NCBI GenBank assembly: GCA_937975135.1
Contig: CALJVA010000022.1
Location: 7,118-71,117, forward strand
Source of the DNA: an uncultured Thermoactinomycetaceae bacterium
GTDB taxonomy: Bacteria > Bacillota > Bacilli > Thermoactinomycetales > CALJVA01
DNA length: 64,000 nt
Reading direction: 5' to 3'
How positions within the stretch are numbered: position 1 is the stretch's first letter; the number at the start of each line of letters is the position of its first letter. The position numbers were made by a program, and so were the translations under genes. Below, piece after piece: positions 2,874 to 20,250 of the stretch. The notes beneath the pieces are model-generated. The model searched no databases. It was given only the letters and a program-made list of their open reading frames with translations, and was not told the DNA's origin.

Positions 2874-4240
2874 TGTTCCCCAAAGCAGGGGAGTGGTCAG
2901 GAAAACGCATTTTGGTGTTAGGGATGGCCAAAAGCGGCATTGCAGTGGCAAAACTATTGCATCGTTTAGGTGCTAAGGTTACCGTAAACGATAAAAAGCC
3001 ACGGGAAGAAACACCTGAAGCTGCTCAACTGGAAGAATTGGGAGTTCGCGTGATTCTAGGAGGCCATCCCGACTCCCTATTGTCGGAGGATATCGATCTA
3101 ATCGTCAAAAACCCAGGAATCCCTTACCATATTCCATTTATTCAAAAAGCGATTTATGCCCATATTCCAATTGTTACTGAGATAGAAGTCGCCGGACGTC
3201 TTACAGATTCCCCTTTGATTGGGATTAGTGGATCTAACGGCAAAACCACTACCACTTCTCTGGTTGGTGAGATGTTAGTAGCAGGAGGATTAAAAGCACG
3301 GGTTGCGGGAAATATAGGAACCGCATTAACGGAAGCCATTCAGGAGGCAGATTCAAAAGAATGGCTGGTAACAGAATTAAGCAGCTTTCAATTAAAAGGA
3401 ATTGATCAGTTTCATCCCCAAGTTGCCGCATTATTAAATATTGTTCCAACCCATTTGGACTATCACCAGACAATGGAGGACTATATCGCTTCTAAGCGGC
3501 AGTTGTTCCGTAACCAAACAGAAACGGATATTGCAATTCTTAATTATGACGACCCGGTCTGTCGGAGTTTAAGTCGGGATCTCCCCAGTACAGTTTGGTG
3601 GTTTAGCCGTTGCGGCCCGGTTGCTAGCGGGGTGTATGCAGATGGGGGAAAAATTTTTATTCATCTCCCTGATCAAATTCCCCGAGTTTTAATGTCGACG
3701 AAAGAGGTATCTTTACCAGGATCGCACAACTTAGAAAATGCCTTGGCCGCCATTGCGATTGCTTTGGCATGTGGGGTATCCGACCAAGCCATTGACCAAG
3801 TGCTACGCACATTTAGGGGTGTAGAACATCGTCTGGAATTTGTAAGGGAAGTGAATGGTGTACGCTATTACAATGATTCTAAGGCGACCAACCCTCAAGC
3901 CACCATTCAAGCCCTTCATTCCTTCCGCAGCCCGATTGTCCTAATTGCGGGTGGCATGGATCGTGGTGCGGATTTTTTCGAATTGGTTCCTGTATTCTCA
4001 CAGAGGGTAAAAGCCCTTGTTGCATATGGAGAAACTGGACCACTTTTACTGCAGCGAGCAGCTGAGGCTGGGATTCCAGCTCAATTGGTGGAAAATGTGA
4101 CACAAGGTGTACAAAATGCAAAAGAGTTAGCCCAGGAGGGAGACATTGTTCTCCTTTCTCCCTCCTGCGCTAGCTGGGACCTTTATTCATCTTTCGAAGA
4201 ACGGGGAAGCATTTTTAAACAAGCTGTGCATAGGCTGTAA
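2873..4240 (+). CDS. murD: UDP-N-acetylmuramoyl-L-alanine--D-glutamate ligase
   Basis: Motifs GSNGKTTT, ELSSFQL, HRLE, NDSKATN and SPSCASWD. The ATG overlaps the mraY TGA (TGATG). Confidence 0.95.
   Translation: MFPKAGEWSGKRILVLGMAKSGIAVAKLLHRLGAKVTVNDKKPREETPEAAQLEELGVRVILGGHPDSLLSEDIDLIVKNPGIPYHIPFIQKAIYAHIPIVTEIEVAGRLTDSPLIGISGSNGKTTTTSLVGEMLVAGGLKARVAGNIGTALTEAIQEADSKEWLVTELSSFQLKGIDQFHPQVAALLNIVPTHLDYHQTMEDYIASKRQLFRNQTETDIAILNYDDPVCRSLSRDLPSTVWWFSRCGPVASGVYADGGKIFIHLPDQIPRVLMSTKEVSLPGSHNLENALAAIAIALACGVSDQAIDQVLRTFRGVEHRLEFVREVNGVRYYNDSKATNPQATIQALHSFRSPIVLIAGGMDRGADFFELVPVFSQRVKALVAYGETGPLLLQRAAEAGIPAQLVENVTQGVQNAKELAQEGDIVLLSPSCASWDLYSSFEERGSIFKQAVHRL
4209..4236 (+). promoter_or_regulatory. 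Putative SigE promoter for spoVE inside the murD 3' end
   Basis: GCATTTT-13 nt-CATAGGCT resembles the SigE consensus. B. subtilis spoVE has a SigE promoter in a similar position. Confidence 0.5.
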
Positions 4241-4278
4241 AAGAGAGCTTGCCCGATTCGAAAGAGGTGGGTCCTCCG

Positions 4279-5382
4279 ATGAACAAAACGCGTTCTAATC
4301 CCGATTATTTGATTGTCACTGCGATTTTACTTTTATTAACGATCGGTGTGATTATGGTCTACAGTGCCAGTGCCGCCTACGCTTATCATCGATACGGTGA
4401 TCTCTTTTTCTATGCTAAGCGGCAACTTCTCTTTGCGGGCCTCGGTGTTTTCCTCATGTTTGTAGTGGCTCATCTGGATCGAGAAGTGTTTGTAAAATGG
4501 GCCAAGCCTAGTCTATGGGTCTGTTTTATACTATTAGTATTGGTGTTGATCCCCGGTGTTGGTTTGTTGCGGGGTGGTGCGCGTAGTTGGTTAGGCATCG
4601 GTGCTTTTAGTATCCAACCCTCCGAATTTATGAAACTGGCGTTGATCGCTTACCTTTCCTATTCACTGTCAACTTATAGTCAAGGTCTTTCCCGATTTTG
4701 GAAGGATCTGTTCCCACGACTTGCCGTGATAGGTGCAGCTTTTGGTTTAATCATGCTTCAGCCGGATTTGGGAACAGGGACCGTTTTAGTGGGAACCGGT
4801 GTTATTATTCTCTTTGTAGCAGGAGCCCGATTAAAGCATCTCTTCGGGCTCTCACTTCTGGGAGTCGCTGGCTTTACAGCTTTAGTACTCGAAGCACCTT
4901 ACCGAATTCGTCGGATTACAGCTTTTATTGATCCTTGGGAAGATCCTTTGGGAGCAGGTTATCATCTCATTCAATCCTTGTATGCAATTGGTCCCGGTGG
5001 GTTACTGGGATTAGGGCTGGGAATGAGCCGGCAAAAACATTTATATCTCCCTGAACCTCATACGGATTTTATTTTTTCTATTTTGGCAGAGGAGTTTGGT
5101 TTTATTGGAGCCGCGATTGTTATTTTCTTGTTTGCAGTTGTCGTATGGCGAGGATTAAGAACTGCGATTGTAGCACCTGATTTGTTTAGTAGCTTGTTAG
5201 CTACAGGGATCACCTCGATGATTGCCATCCAGGCAATAATCAATATTGGAGTTGTCTCCGGTGCTTTTCCTGTGACGGGGATTACACTGCCCTTTCTAAG
5301 CTATGGAGGCTCCTCGCTTACATTATCTTTGGTGGCAGTAGGGGTATTATTAAATATCTCACGGGATAGTCATAAAATATAG
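4279..5382 (+). CDS. spoVE: SEDS-family peptidoglycan glycosyltransferase, stage V sporulation protein E
   Basis: Motifs GARSW, IQPSEF, QPDLG, YLPEPHTDFIF and LPFLSYGGSS; lies between murD and murG. Confidence 0.9.
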   Translation: MNKTRSNPDYLIVTAILLLLTIGVIMVYSASAAYAYHRYGDLFFYAKRQLLFAGLGVFLMFVVAHLDREVFVKWAKPSLWVCFILLVLVLIPGVGLLRGGARSWLGIGAFSIQPSEFMKLALIAYLSYSLSTYSQGLSRFWKDLFPRLAVIGAAFGLIMLQPDLGTGTVLVGTGVIILFVAGARLKHLFGLSLLGVAGFTALVLEAPYRIRRITAFIDPWEDPLGAGYHLIQSLYAIGPGGLLGLGLGMSRQKHLYLPEPHTDFIFSILAEEFGFIGAAIVIFLFAVVVWRGLRTAIVAPDLFSSLLATGITSMIAIQAIINIGVVSGAFPVTGITLPFLSYGGSSLTLSLVAVGVLLNISRDSHKI

Positions 5383-17483: not shown

Positions 17484-17891
17484 ATGAGTGTGATGGAGCG
17501 GATTATGGGTTTTTTTGGGATTAGCGAAGAAGAGATTAATGAACAGAAGGAGGCACTACAGTCCTCATCTTCTCAAGGGCGTGGCAAGGTCGTTTCCCTG
17601 CATTCGCAAAAGAATATCCGCGTCGTACTAATTGAACCACACACCTATGACGAGGCACAAGAAATCGCCGACAATTTAAAAAGCCACCGGCCTGTTGTGG
17701 TTAATTTACAGCGGGTACATCGAGATCAAGCCCTACGAATTGTCGATTTTTTAAGTGGAACGGTTTATGCATTGGGGGGGACGATTCATAAGTTAGGTCC
17801 ACATATATTTATTTGCACACCTGCCAACGTGGATATCCAGGGGAATATCAGTGATATCATGGCAGATGAAGCGAAGGATTTATTGAGGTGA
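17484..17891 (+). CDS. sepF: Cell division protein SepF
   Basis: Motifs [20 protein letters not shown] and [15 protein letters not shown]. Confidence 0.95.
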
Positions 17892-17897
17892 CGGGCT

Positions 17898-18167
17898 GTG
17901 GAGGTAATTGCAGTTGTTCGACTGCTATTTAGAATTTATTGGTTTATGATTATTGGCTATATTTTACTTTCCTGGTTTCCCCAGGCGCGAGAGTCGCCAA
18001 TTGCCCAACTTTTATCCCGGATGGTAGAACCGTATCTTTCTATTTTTCGCTTTATACCACCTATCGGAATTTTTGACATTTCTCCGATCATCGCATTAAT
18101 TGCATTACAATTTGTCCAAGCAGGTGTAGAATATATTATACTACTGATACTAGGAATGTTAGGATAA
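17898..18167 (+). CDS. ylmG: YggT family membrane protein
   Basis: Motifs ILLSWFP, EPYL and IFDISPIIAL. Confidence 0.9.
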   Translation: MEVIAVVRLLFRIYWFMIIGYILLSWFPQARESPIAQLLSRMVEPYLSIFRFIPPIGIFDISPIIALIALQFVQAGVEYIILLILGMLG

Positions 18168-18958
18168 TGAGAAATAAGGAAGTATTGTTTCCACATTTTT
18201 CACAGGAAGAACATCCTTTTGTTGAACGTGCTCTGGATTGGATTGACCAGGTGATCCATCGACAACGTCCATATCTAACTTCCTTTCTTGATCCCCGTCA
18301 ACAACAGATCGTAAAGATGTTGGCACAGCGCGAATCGGATTTAAGATTGGAAGCAGAGGGCGGTTATCCTGAAGCAGAGCGACGGCGACTCCTTCTCCTC
18401 CCCCTTTTCCAGACTGCTGAAGAGGGGGATTTTCAGTTAGCTTTTTTACGACTCGATTATCCAACACAATCCCGAGTGGAGCATCGAGATATCTTGGGTT
18501 CCCTCTTGGGACTAGGGATTAAAAGAACACTTTTTGGGGATATATTGATTCATAAGAATAGCAATCAGACAGACTTGATTGTGGCAGCTGAAATTGCTGA
18601 TTATGTTCTCCTACATTTAACTCATGTCGGTCGTACTAAGATCCGGATTAAGAAAATAGAGCAGGAAGAGCTGATAATTCCTCCACGCTCTTTTGAAACC
18701 TGGAAAGTTTCAGTAGCTTCTTTACGAGTAGATACGATCGTGGCTGAAGGTTTTCGTCTGTCTCGTTCGAAAGCAGTTCAGTTGATTCGCAATGGAAAGT
18801 GTCAGGTAAATTGGAGACCGATTGATAATCCTGCAACTCCTATTCAAGTGGAGGATATGATTTCGATTCGCGGAGCGGGCAGGATTTATGTTTTAGGAAT
18901 CGAAGGAGTCTCAAGGAAGAAACGTATTCAAGTACAGTTAGGGAAAATAAAGGATTAA
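18167..18958 (+). CDS. ylmH: S4-domain RNA-binding protein
   Basis: Motifs FLDP, GGYPEAERRR, HRDILGSLLGLG and C-terminal S4 (SLRVDTIV...SRSKA). Confidence 0.9.
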   Translation: MRNKEVLFPHFSQEEHPFVERALDWIDQVIHRQRPYLTSFLDPRQQQIVKMLAQRESDLRLEAEGGYPEAERRRLLLLPLFQTAEEGDFQLAFLRLDYPTQSRVEHRDILGSLLGLGIKRTLFGDILIHKNSNQTDLIVAAEIADYVLLHLTHVGRTKIRIKKIEQEELIIPPRSFETWKVSVASLRVDTIVAEGFRLSRSKAVQLIRNGKCQVNWRPIDNPATPIQVEDMISIRGAGRIYVLGIEGVSRKKRIQVQLGKIKD

Positions 18959-19105: not shown

Positions 19106-19140
19106 GTAGGGGGAAGCCAATTTTTAGAGGAGGTGCTTGC

Positions 19141-19947
19141 ATGCCACTTACGCCTTTAGATATACACAATAAAGAATTTAAACGTTCATTCCGCGGTTAT
19201 GACGTTGATGAAGTAAATGATTTTTTGGATCAGATTATTAAGGACTTTGAATTTCTTATTCGAGAAAAACAGCAGTTAGAACAACAGGTGGAGGAGTTGC
19301 AGCAAGAATTAGACCGGGTGATGGAAGAGCAATCGATGTCTTCCATGCCATCCCATGCCCCAATGCCGCAACAACAGTCCATCTATCAGCCACCGGAGCC
19401 GGCTCAGGCACAGGTGCCCGCTTCAACAATTAATACGCTTACTTCTATGGAACAAAGTATTCATAAATCAATCCGTGTCGCTCAGGAAGTCGCGGATGAA
19501 GTGCGGTTAAATGCGAAAAAGGAAGCGGAGTTAATTGTTCAGGAAGCTGAGAAAAATGCTGACCGAATTATTAATGAGGCACTTCAGAAAGCGCGAGCGA
19601 TCCATAGTGAACTTTTGGATCTAAAGCAAAAATCTACAATATACCGAGCACGTTTCCGTACGTTAATTCAATCTCATATGGATATTCTGGAAAACTCCGA
19701 TTGGGAATCCCTTGAAGAGTTGGAAGAAGGGCTAGAAGAAAAGGAAAAGGAATTTGATGCCTATCAAATGAGTGGCCCCGAACCGTTAGATAATACAAAT
19801 CCAAACCATCACTTTACTAATTTTCATGATCACGACTATCAATCTCATTTGGAGGATGCGGACCACTCCTATTTAGAAGAGGAAGAGGAACCGCGGCGTG
19901 AGCTGCGACGTACAGCCCGTAAGTTAAAAAAGAAAGCAATGTTTTAA
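19141..19947 (+). CDS. divIVA: Polar scaffold DivIVA, with internal insertion and C-terminal extension
   Basis: Motifs MPLTPLDIHNKEF, RGYDVDEVNDFLD and AEKNADRII; lies between ylmH and ileS. Confidence 0.95.
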   Translation: MPLTPLDIHNKEFKRSFRGYDVDEVNDFLDQIIKDFEFLIREKQQLEQQVEELQQELDRVMEEQSMSSMPSHAPMPQQQSIYQPPEPAQAQVPASTINTLTSMEQSIHKSIRVAQEVADEVRLNAKKEAELIVQEAEKNADRIINEALQKARAIHSELLDLKQKSTIYRARFRTLIQSHMDILENSDWESLEELEEGLEEKEKEFDAYQMSGPEPLDNTNPNHHFTNFHDHDYQSHLEDADHSYLEEEEEPRRELRRTARKLKKKAMF

Positions 19948-19954
19948 TATATAC

Positions 19955-19984
19955 TTGACGGAATGGTTTTCCACCATTTATAAT
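19955..19984 (+). promoter_or_regulatory. SigA promoter of the ileS leader
   Basis: TTGACG-18 nt-TATAAT. Confidence 0.7.
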
Positions 19985-20004
19985 AATTGATCATTAATAC
20001 GTTA

Positions 20005-20250
20005 ACGGCAAGGAACGGGACGAGTAGATGGAACGCCCGCGTTTAATAGCGAGTTAGGGATAGTGAAAGCCTAACCCGGTCGTCTATTGAAGATCCCCCG
20101 GGAGCTGTCGCCTGAAACTGTTGGAGTAGGGTGAACCGGTTCATTCACGTTACGAATGATAGAGCGGGTTTGTTCTGTTTTGGAACAACTAAAGTAGGGT
20201 GGTACCGCGGGAACCTTCTCGTCCCTCATGGGATGATGAGGGTTTTTTTT
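20005..20250 (+). promoter_or_regulatory. T-box riboswitch (Ile) with terminator
   Basis: AGTA and AG-box (AGCGAG) elements, specifier ATC at 20093-20095, T-box AGGGTGGTACCGCG at 20196-20209, terminator CCCTCAT...ATGAGGG plus T8. Confidence 0.95.

Follow-up and report, generated by a model that had tools for sequence, protein, structure and literature searches.

The DivIVA protein of a Planifilum-related thermoactinomycete carries two extensions, a linker between its N-terminal domain and its second coiled coil plus a tail at the C-terminus, and the tail ends in a short peptide that is private to the clade and under strong purifying selection. We put a probability of roughly 0.55 on the reading that this clade-specific variant adapts DivIVA to hyphal extension and branching that do without the Rod complex, the terminal peptide serving as a docking motif of electrostatic nature. 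DivIVA is a textbook scaffold with two uses, controlling the division site in Bacillota and serving polar growth in Actinomycetota, and thermoactinomycetes are Bacillota that resemble actinomycetes. Their DivIVA has converged on the actinomycete domain layout, and about 40% of the order, the host included, lack MreB, MreC and, by a reduced SEDS count, RodA. DivIVA itself is well known; new here is a private C-terminal short linear motif on a clade-specific DivIVA in a lineage with repeated loss of the Rod complex. The long-standing question of how little must change for a division scaffold to become an organiser of growth thereby becomes directly testable, in a system that offers culturable Thermoactinomyces, Laceyella and Planifilum and, as a natural control, the rod-shaped sister clade of Novibacillus and Numidum.

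The open reading frame at 19141..19947 on the + strand of the window (the whole stretch of 64,000 nucleotides that was analysed) encodes a protein of 268 aa, the same one that had drawn attention in the initial annotation. The following features surround or delimit the gene:

17484..17891, + strand: sepF, part of the ylm/divIVA synteny block (Pfam SepF, E 7e-30)
18167..18958, + strand: ylmH, encoding an S4-domain RNA-binding protein, the conserved upstream neighbour of divIVA (Pfam YlmH_RBD, YlmH_1st and S4)
19129..19133, + strand: Shine-Dalgarno sequence GGAGG, 7 nt upstream of the divIVA ATG (read from the sequence)
19945..19947, + strand: divIVA stop codon TAA (read from the sequence)
20002..20229, + strand: T-box leader of ileS, a context marker outside the protein (105.9 bits with Rfam RF00230, whose gathering score is 93)

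Upstream, the gene order is sigE, sigG, a PRC-barrel gene (ylmC), ylmD, ylmE, sepF, ylmG, ylmH and divIVA. The T-box leader, which starts 55 nt past the divIVA stop, is followed by ileS, a DUF5665 gene, a gene for a DksA/TraR zinc-finger protein and lspA. The same ylm-divIVA-ileS arrangement is present in Novibacillus and Numidum. Because the classical Bacillales block surrounds the gene, the 268-aa protein is an orthologue and not a paralogue, and we conclude that it is the single-copy divIVA orthologue of a Planifilum-related thermoactinomycete. Two further DivIVA-domain proteins are encoded elsewhere in the host genome.

Family assignments agree with this identification. The protein scores 123.4 bits with Pfam PF05103 (cut-off 28), the match being broken in two by the insert, and 59.8 bits with the DivIVA domain model TIGR03544 (cut-off 22). 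Residues 1-56 align with the N-domain of B. subtilis DivIVA (2wuj, E 2.5e-17), and the exposed Phe-Arg pair F17/R18 is present (KRSFRGYD) and at least 90% conserved in alignment A1. Two other identities were rejected. For GpsB, the score with NCBIfam NF010725 was 63.1 bits against a cut-off of 91, and the protein has 268 aa against about 100 aa for GpsB, a GpsB-like paralogue being encoded separately on contig C16; for a Wag31-type protein, the NCBIfam equivalog NF050102 gave 81 bits against a cut-off of 260. Judged by its sequence, the coiled-coil core is Bacillota-type and not Wag31-type.

When the protein was aligned with the DivIVAs of 156-172 aa from rod-shaped Bacillales, residues ~60-99 and ~208-268 had no counterpart, whereas the core was 56-62% identical. 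The former residues form an insert of about 40 aa where the N-domain meets the second coiled coil and the latter a tail of about 61 aa. The protein can be divided into five parts:

19141..19317, + strand: N-terminal lipid-binding domain and first coiled coil, aa 1-59, including F17/R18 (2wuj, TIGR03544, alignment A1; AlphaFold2 helix 22-67)
19318..19437, + strand: PQ-rich disordered inter-domain linker, aa 60-99, a clade-specific insert (gapped in short Bacillales DivIVAs; AlphaFold2 coil, pLDDT 43-46)
19438..19761, + strand: second coiled coil or oligomerisation region, aa 100-207, the conserved core (second Pfam DivIVA stretch; per-column conservation 8-9/10; AlphaFold2 helices)
19762..19866, + strand: variable acidic, aromatic, His-rich disordered tail, aa 208-242 (not conserved; AlphaFold2 pLDDT 43-51)
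19867..19944, + strand: aa 243-268, the conserved C-terminal motif SYLEEEEEPRRELRRTARKLKKKAMF, in which an acidic block (net -5) precedes a basic 17-mer (net +8) whose end is hydrophobic (alignment A2, tail profile)

Open reading frame, split PF05103 match and alignment thus bear out the earlier description of a DivIVA of 268 aa with a linker insert interrupting the coiled coil and with a tail at the C-terminus. Structure and disorder prediction, which had been proposed at the same time, was carried out with AlphaFold2 on an alignment of 60 sequences. Confident helices were obtained for residues 22-67, 95-184 and 187-210, the last two with pLDDT above 90, and residues 68-94 and 211-268 were modelled as coil with no structure (pLDDT 43-61). 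The model therefore predicts a long C-terminal coiled coil for dimer or tetramer formation, and a disordered linker and tail.

Within the clade the linker is poorly conserved. Its length ranges from 36 to about 90 aa across genera, and its composition is dominated by Gln (24%) and Pro (18%). The proximal tail varies from 26 to 173 aa, is rich in Q, D, E and N and often consists of degenerate acidic-aromatic repeats of the form [QH][DE][FY], for example TQEYQDFN. The six histidines within 20 residues, the run of five glutamates and the terminal RRELRRTARKLKKKAMF that had been pointed out in the host protein are all present. The His content rises above 14% in three lineages only, those of the query, Marinithermofilum and Paludifilum, and is 0-3% in most genera; the His-richness looks like a Q-to-H variant of the degenerate repeats. 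Since these residues are not conserved beyond three lineages, a His-rich metal-binding tail is ruled out as a general feature, and the suggested binding of metal through the tail is unlikely. The tail is special in its last ~26 aa, which are conserved, and not in residues 208-242, which are variable and whose His-richness is lineage-specific.

In all 34 named thermoactinomycete loci the protein ends in a nearly invariant stretch of about 26 residues, SY[LM]EEEEEPRRELRRTSRKLKKKAMF. R24, R25, R28, K33, A34, M35 and F36 are invariant in alignment A2, the basic stretch ends in AMF, and most positions of the motif (E-P-R-R-E-L-R-R-T...K-A-M-F) tolerate no exchange of K and R across the whole order. 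The terminal 17-mer has a net charge of +8 and the remainder of DivIVA one of -26. We compared the last 19 codons among 25 genera and found nucleotide identities of 0.84, 0.97 and 0.47 at codon positions 1, 2 and 3; differing codon pairs were synonymous in 2743 cases and non-synonymous in 534 (about 5:1). This pattern indicates that selection acts on the peptide and not on an overlapping DNA signal. The conservation of the terminal motif is far beyond chance and reflects strong purifying selection at the protein level.

Three other accounts of the peptide did not hold. An overlapping DNA or RNA element, such as an ileS promoter or the T-box, does not explain the conserved 3' end, as third codon positions are 47% identical against 97% for second positions and the T-box lies 55 nt away. 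A C-terminal tag common to several proteins was likewise rejected. A six-frame regular-expression search of the host genome found the ending in DivIVA and in no other open reading frame, and a profile search of 1.84 billion representative proteins gave seven matches, all of them DivIVA or DivIVA fragments of the clade, and did not find the peptide in any protein from outside it. Finally, an amphipathic membrane helix like the C-terminal ones of MinD and FtsA is not supported: the mean hydrophobicity of the peptide is -0.84, compared with about -0.2 to 0.0 for the membrane-targeting helices of those two proteins, and AlphaFold2 modelled it as coil. Being too polar for such a helix and, with its near-invariant sequence, too constrained for a mere charge patch, the peptide is more readily seen as a ligand for a specific protein partner or for ordered self-association than for lipid or DNA.

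Within the thermoactinomycete order, to which it belongs, the host stands nearest to Planifilum, with a DivIVA identity of 72-76%; the initial annotation had made its reading conditional on a mycelial thermoactinomycete host, and the host is a thermoactinomycete. A divIVA gene was present in 41 of 41 relatives. Full-coverage homologues (256-330 aa) came exclusively from genera of the Thermoactinomycetaceae, including Planifilum, Salinithrix, Marininema, Kroppenstedtia, Laceyella, Shimazuella and Thermoactinomyces. Of the order's 53 species genomes, 49 gave a single match each to the tail profile; those without a match were Novibacillus thermophilus, Numidum massiliense and two small incomplete metagenome-assembled genomes. 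One of the latter, the reduced genome G045, encodes a divergent tail variant ending in KRSSRRSRRKAIF. Another reduced genome, G046, encodes a DivIVA of 432 aa with a tail of about 230 aa rich in S, G, P and Q that ends in EPRREVRRGTRKKLKKNAIF, and a recognisable tail is kept even in a reduced genome of 1.0 Mb.

The alignment across Bacillales that had been called for separates these proteins. Every DivIVA recovered outside the family of Novibacillus and Numidum, the only rod-shaped members, has the two extensions. The DivIVAs of these two genera have 167 and 166 aa, respectively, and lack insert and tail, as do the DivIVAs of 156-172 aa of other rod-shaped Bacillales. The extensions are therefore not common in rod-shaped relatives, and on this count the reading of the initial annotation is not refuted. 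Numidum forms rods of 0.5 x 2.7 µm (PMC4910145), Novibacillus is described as rods (PMC13249872, citing Yang et al.), and Thermoactinomyces forms a branched septate mycelium (PMC7840651). We infer the morphology of the host from its relatives.

In trees of the neighbouring ileS product, the pair of Novibacillus and Numidum was sister to the clade with every extended DivIVA (SH-aLRT 98-99), and the host was placed next to Planifilum. Three rows (Seinonella, Polycladospora and G046) had been left out because they were not orthologous or held another gene, two rows had aberrantly long branches, and the trees contain polytomies. The distribution of the tail on the tree corresponds to one change. 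As the rod pair is sister to all extended DivIVAs, a single gain suffices, and linker, variable tail and terminal peptide arose a single time, on the stem leading to the clade with the mycelial genera. One gain also means that the correlation with mycelial growth carries no statistical weight: extensions and morphology are linked by a single phylogenetic contrast, which the history of the clade could have produced by coincidence.

A second peculiarity of the host is the absence of the Rod complex. In the host and in Planifilum radC is directly followed by minC-minD, whereas Novibacillus and a Rod-positive relative (G013, family f5) have the order radC-mreB-mreC-mreD-minC-minD. With queries from two relatives, tblastn found no MreB, MreC or MreD in the host genome beyond weak MreB matches of 27-28% identity, which we take to be other actin-fold ATPases; one of them falls within the window's dcw region. 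MreB and MreC shared one distribution: both were present in 32 of the 53 genomes and both were missing from the other 21, which all lie outside the rod family and include 19 of high quality. Every MreB-positive genome has at least three SEDS genes. By comparison, exactly two are encoded in 20 of the 21 genomes without MreB, and in the remaining one, the 68%-complete G044, no SEDS gene was detected. The two of the host are FtsW and SpoVE by NCBIfam, and the third gene of Rod-positive relatives is RodA. The host hence lacks the whole elongasome core of mreB, mreC, mreD and rodA, and from the reduced SEDS count we infer that RodA is missing from the other MreB-negative genomes as well.

The losses number at least two independent events on the IleS tree, all within the clade with extended DivIVA and none in the rod family. 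They do not provide statistical power, the minimum being only two and the polytomies barring a firmer number. Moreover, 30 of the 49 profile-positive genomes, including that of Thermoactinomyces vulgaris, keep the full mreBCD-rodA set, much like Streptomyces, which retains its mre genes for sporulation, and thus loss of the Rod complex is neither required for the extensions nor tightly coupled to them. The Min system was retained throughout: MinD scored above the cut-off in 41 of 41 genomes, usually with two copies, and in the host one copy adjoins a MinE-like gene. Classical roles in division and sporulation therefore probably persist, and these roles could alone explain a new docking motif.

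How might such a protein work? Through its N-domain, DivIVA would still detect negatively curved membrane, both at septa and at new poles or branch sites. The long flexible tail would hold the terminal peptide away from the scaffold, as befits a short linear docking motif, and the peptide would bind an anionic surface. The likeliest target would be a partner protein of the wall-building or branching machinery or, on adjacent DivIVA oligomers, their acidic coiled coil or tail, in which case binding would make the polar lattice thicker. A phospho-switch could be provided by the conserved Thr in RRT(S/A)RK. DivIVA would then be the organiser of Rod-independent, probably apical, extension and branching of hyphae and a convergent counterpart of the actinomycete protein. 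Without MreBCD and RodA, hyphal elongation of the host needs another route, and DivIVA-organised apical synthesis is the known precedent; this precedent, together with a selected, clade-specific peptide on a long tether, favours the reading of Rod-independent hyphal growth. The initial annotation had spoken of a convergent polarisome scaffold for hyphae. The actinomycete-like layout and the absence of the Rod complex in the host speak for that idea, and against it stands the fact that the correlation with the mycelium goes back to one event.

A more far-reaching version can be put forward only tentatively. According to it, DivIVA-organised apical growth evolved independently, and independent of the Rod complex, in the mycelial Thermoactinomycetales, with the peptide EPRRELRRTSRKLKKKAMF recruiting tip wall synthesis (FtsW with a class B PBP, or class A PBPs) or cross-linking the polar DivIVA lattice, and this innovation later allowed the repeated loss of mreBCD-rodA. 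Our literature search gave no instance of tip growth in a thermoactinomycete. The search found no paper that treats DivIVA or MreB together with Thermoactinomyces and none that addresses the site of new wall insertion in any thermoactinomycete. For DivIVA and Thermoactinomycetaceae it returned one survey of sporulation genes, which is silent on the question of hyphal growth.

It is also conceivable, though rather unlikely, that the protein performs classical Bacillota jobs only, namely Min targeting at septa and poles or the handling of the chromosome or of SpoIIE at the sporulation septum, that the peptide docks one such partner as an adaptation to sessile endospores on hyphae, and that something else organises elongation. 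The universal MinD, the minC-minD pair of the host, a core 56-62% identical to rod-type DivIVA, a sigE/sigG-ylm-divIVA neighbourhood as in Bacillus and the 30 genomes that combine tail and complete Rod set would all fit, and reviews treat Bacillota DivIVA as a division protein. Yet the same Min genes occur in Novibacillus and Numidum, of which the latter sporulates, and a DivIVA of 166-167 aa suffices for both. The 21 genomes without the Rod complex need something in its place, and it would be left unexplained why linker and tail have grown precisely at the two sites by which actinomycetes tune branching.

We regard it as improbable that the basic peptide is a second electrostatic anchor, either to anionic lipids (phosphatidylglycerol or cardiolipin) or to DNA, for example as a nucleoid tether at tips or in forespores that works without a RacA-type adaptor. 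Its net charge of +8, the hydrophobic AMF end and its place at the very C-terminus, borne on a long flexible tether, are what such an anchor would look like, and DivIVA is reported to be attracted to cardiolipin-containing membranes (PMC8348161). The low hydrophobicity and the lack of a helix in the AlphaFold2 model argue against this role, as does the near-invariance of the sequence, since simple charge binding does not need it and most positions refuse exchange of K and R. That the extensions are neutral low-complexity expansions with no function of their own is extremely unlikely. Linker and proximal tail vary freely in length and sequence, and their degenerate repeats are typical of slippage; nevertheless both segments are kept in every DivIVA recovered outside the rod family, the tail is still recognisable in the 1.0-Mb genome, and for the terminal 26 aa the codon analysis with its 5:1 synonymous excess effectively refutes neutrality.

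The proposed adaptation of DivIVA to Rod-independent hyphal growth can be set against several known systems. The basic C-terminal variable region of B. subtilis FtsZ may serve as a functional analogy only: it, too, is a short basic C-terminus on the flexible linker of an acidic cytoskeletal protein, and it promotes lateral self-association electrostatically, but protein and sequence are unrelated to the DivIVA tail. In Streptococcus pneumoniae, an ovococcus that keeps MreC, MreD and RodA, DivIVA is linked to peripheral wall growth. It is a further Bacillota DivIVA longer than that of B. subtilis and is reported to be a substrate of StkP, regulated by Ser/Thr phosphorylation (PMC13712964). However, no streptococcal protein was matched by the thermoactinomycete tail profile. 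Wag31 of mycobacteria and corynebacteria (PDB 6lfa) has a similar DivIVA N-domain (E 9.4e-8). It is the growth scaffold in organisms without MreB, and our control search gave no MreB match in C. glutamicum. It differs in that it belongs to another phylum and that the host protein falls below the family cut-off; its intercoil phosphosite, T73, has no alignable counterpart in host DivIVA.

With B. subtilis DivIVA (N-domain structures 2wuj and 2wuk, ~164 aa) the host protein shares the ylmH-divIVA-ileS synteny, the lipid-binding N-domain with F17/R18, the second coiled coil and the presence of MinCD. Of the two, only the host protein has the PQ-rich linker of ~40 aa and the tail of ~61 aa with its invariant terminal peptide. 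B. subtilis has three MreB paralogues, whereas the host has no Rod complex.

To our knowledge actinomycetes lack Min, whereas the thermoactinomycete clade keeps MinCD, and we know of no described actinomycete counterpart of the sharply conserved C-terminal linear motif. In filamentous actinomycetes, DivIVA consists of a lipid-binding N-domain, an unstructured intercoil, an oligomerising second coiled coil and an unstructured C-terminal region (PMC12585849). Removal of either unstructured part alters branching in Kitasatospora, removal of both leads to bursting of the tips, and coils of the B. subtilis type are unable to support polar growth there (PMC12585849). Streptomyces and Kitasatospora, which grow as branching hyphae, thus share the same four-part layout with the host (PMC12585849). 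The added parts, however, have no sequence relationship, and the thermoactinomycete core is of the Bacillota type. The likeness to actinomycete DivIVA is hence a convergence of architecture and not a common ancestry of the added parts.

The entire Rod complex (mreB, mreC, mreD and rodA) is absent from the genome of the Planifilum-related host, and FtsW and SpoVE are its sole SEDS proteins. The radC-min locus and the SEDS genes lie on two further contigs of the host genome and in the window:

Host contig C58, 5102-7470: radC-minC-minD
Host contig C190, 7853-8980: ftsW
Window 4249-5379: spoVE

Within the order Thermoactinomycetales, MreB and MreC are missing from 21 of the 53 genomes, which also carry fewer than three SEDS genes; this set includes Planifilum, Shimazuella, Thermoflavimicrobium, the Baia/Croceifilum group, Seinonella and Polycladospora. 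A single mreB is retained in the remaining genomes. The 2.5-Mb genome G046, likewise without MreB and MreC and with two SEDS genes, encodes a long DivIVA:

L160 (G046 contig C1), 820-2118, minus strand: DivIVA, 432 aa

Its tail of about 230 aa is rich in S, G, P, Q and Y and is still terminated by the conserved basic motif (EPRREVRRGTRKKLKKNAIF).

Besides DivIVA, the host genome encodes two DivIVA-domain proteins, and paralogues of this kind are present across the order. Two host MinD genes score above the TIGR01968 cut-off:

Host contig C16, 41839-41997: GpsB-like protein, about 110 aa
Host contig C2, about 3590-3930: protein of about 105 aa consisting of two tandem DivIVA N-domains
Host contigs C163, 14759-15940, and C58, 5967-7470: the two MinD genes

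The MinD copy on C58 is part of minC-minD. The copy on C163 is preceded by a gene whose 293-aa product has two CxxC-pair sites and is followed by a 92-aa MinE-like ORF. Nearly all genomes of the order have two MinD copies, including those of the rod genera Novibacillus and Numidum.

Downstream of divIVA, no terminator was evident in the window before the T-box leader of ileS (20002-20229), upstream of which a promoter-like sequence begins 8 nt past the divIVA stop:

Window 19955-19984: sigma-A-like promoter, TTGACG, 18-nt spacer, TATAAT

In Seinonella (L113), Melghirimyces profundicolus (L134) and Staphylospora (L143), the large ORF 3' of divIVA is not an orthodox IleS orthologue, which suggests that ileS was replaced or transferred in these organisms. 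The Seinonella ORF differs at its N-terminus and is possibly a type-2 IleS; the other two have very long branches on the IleS tree and an odd composition.

The PQ-rich linker of DivIVA (window 19318-19437 and homologues) carries in most genera a semi-conserved central P-R-[YF], often as QPRYQxPEP, and is otherwise free-running; the host has SIYQPPEP in its place.

The variable tail of DivIVA (window 19762-19866; equivalents in the relatives' loci L027-L045) consists of degenerate acidic-aromatic repeats, which could serve as multivalent short motifs. They read TQEYQDFN (three to four copies) in Thermoactinomyces, GQDFHT (four) in Laceyella and NQEYH (three) in Paenactinomyces, and the His-rich stretch of the host tail looks like a decayed, Q-to-H form of them.
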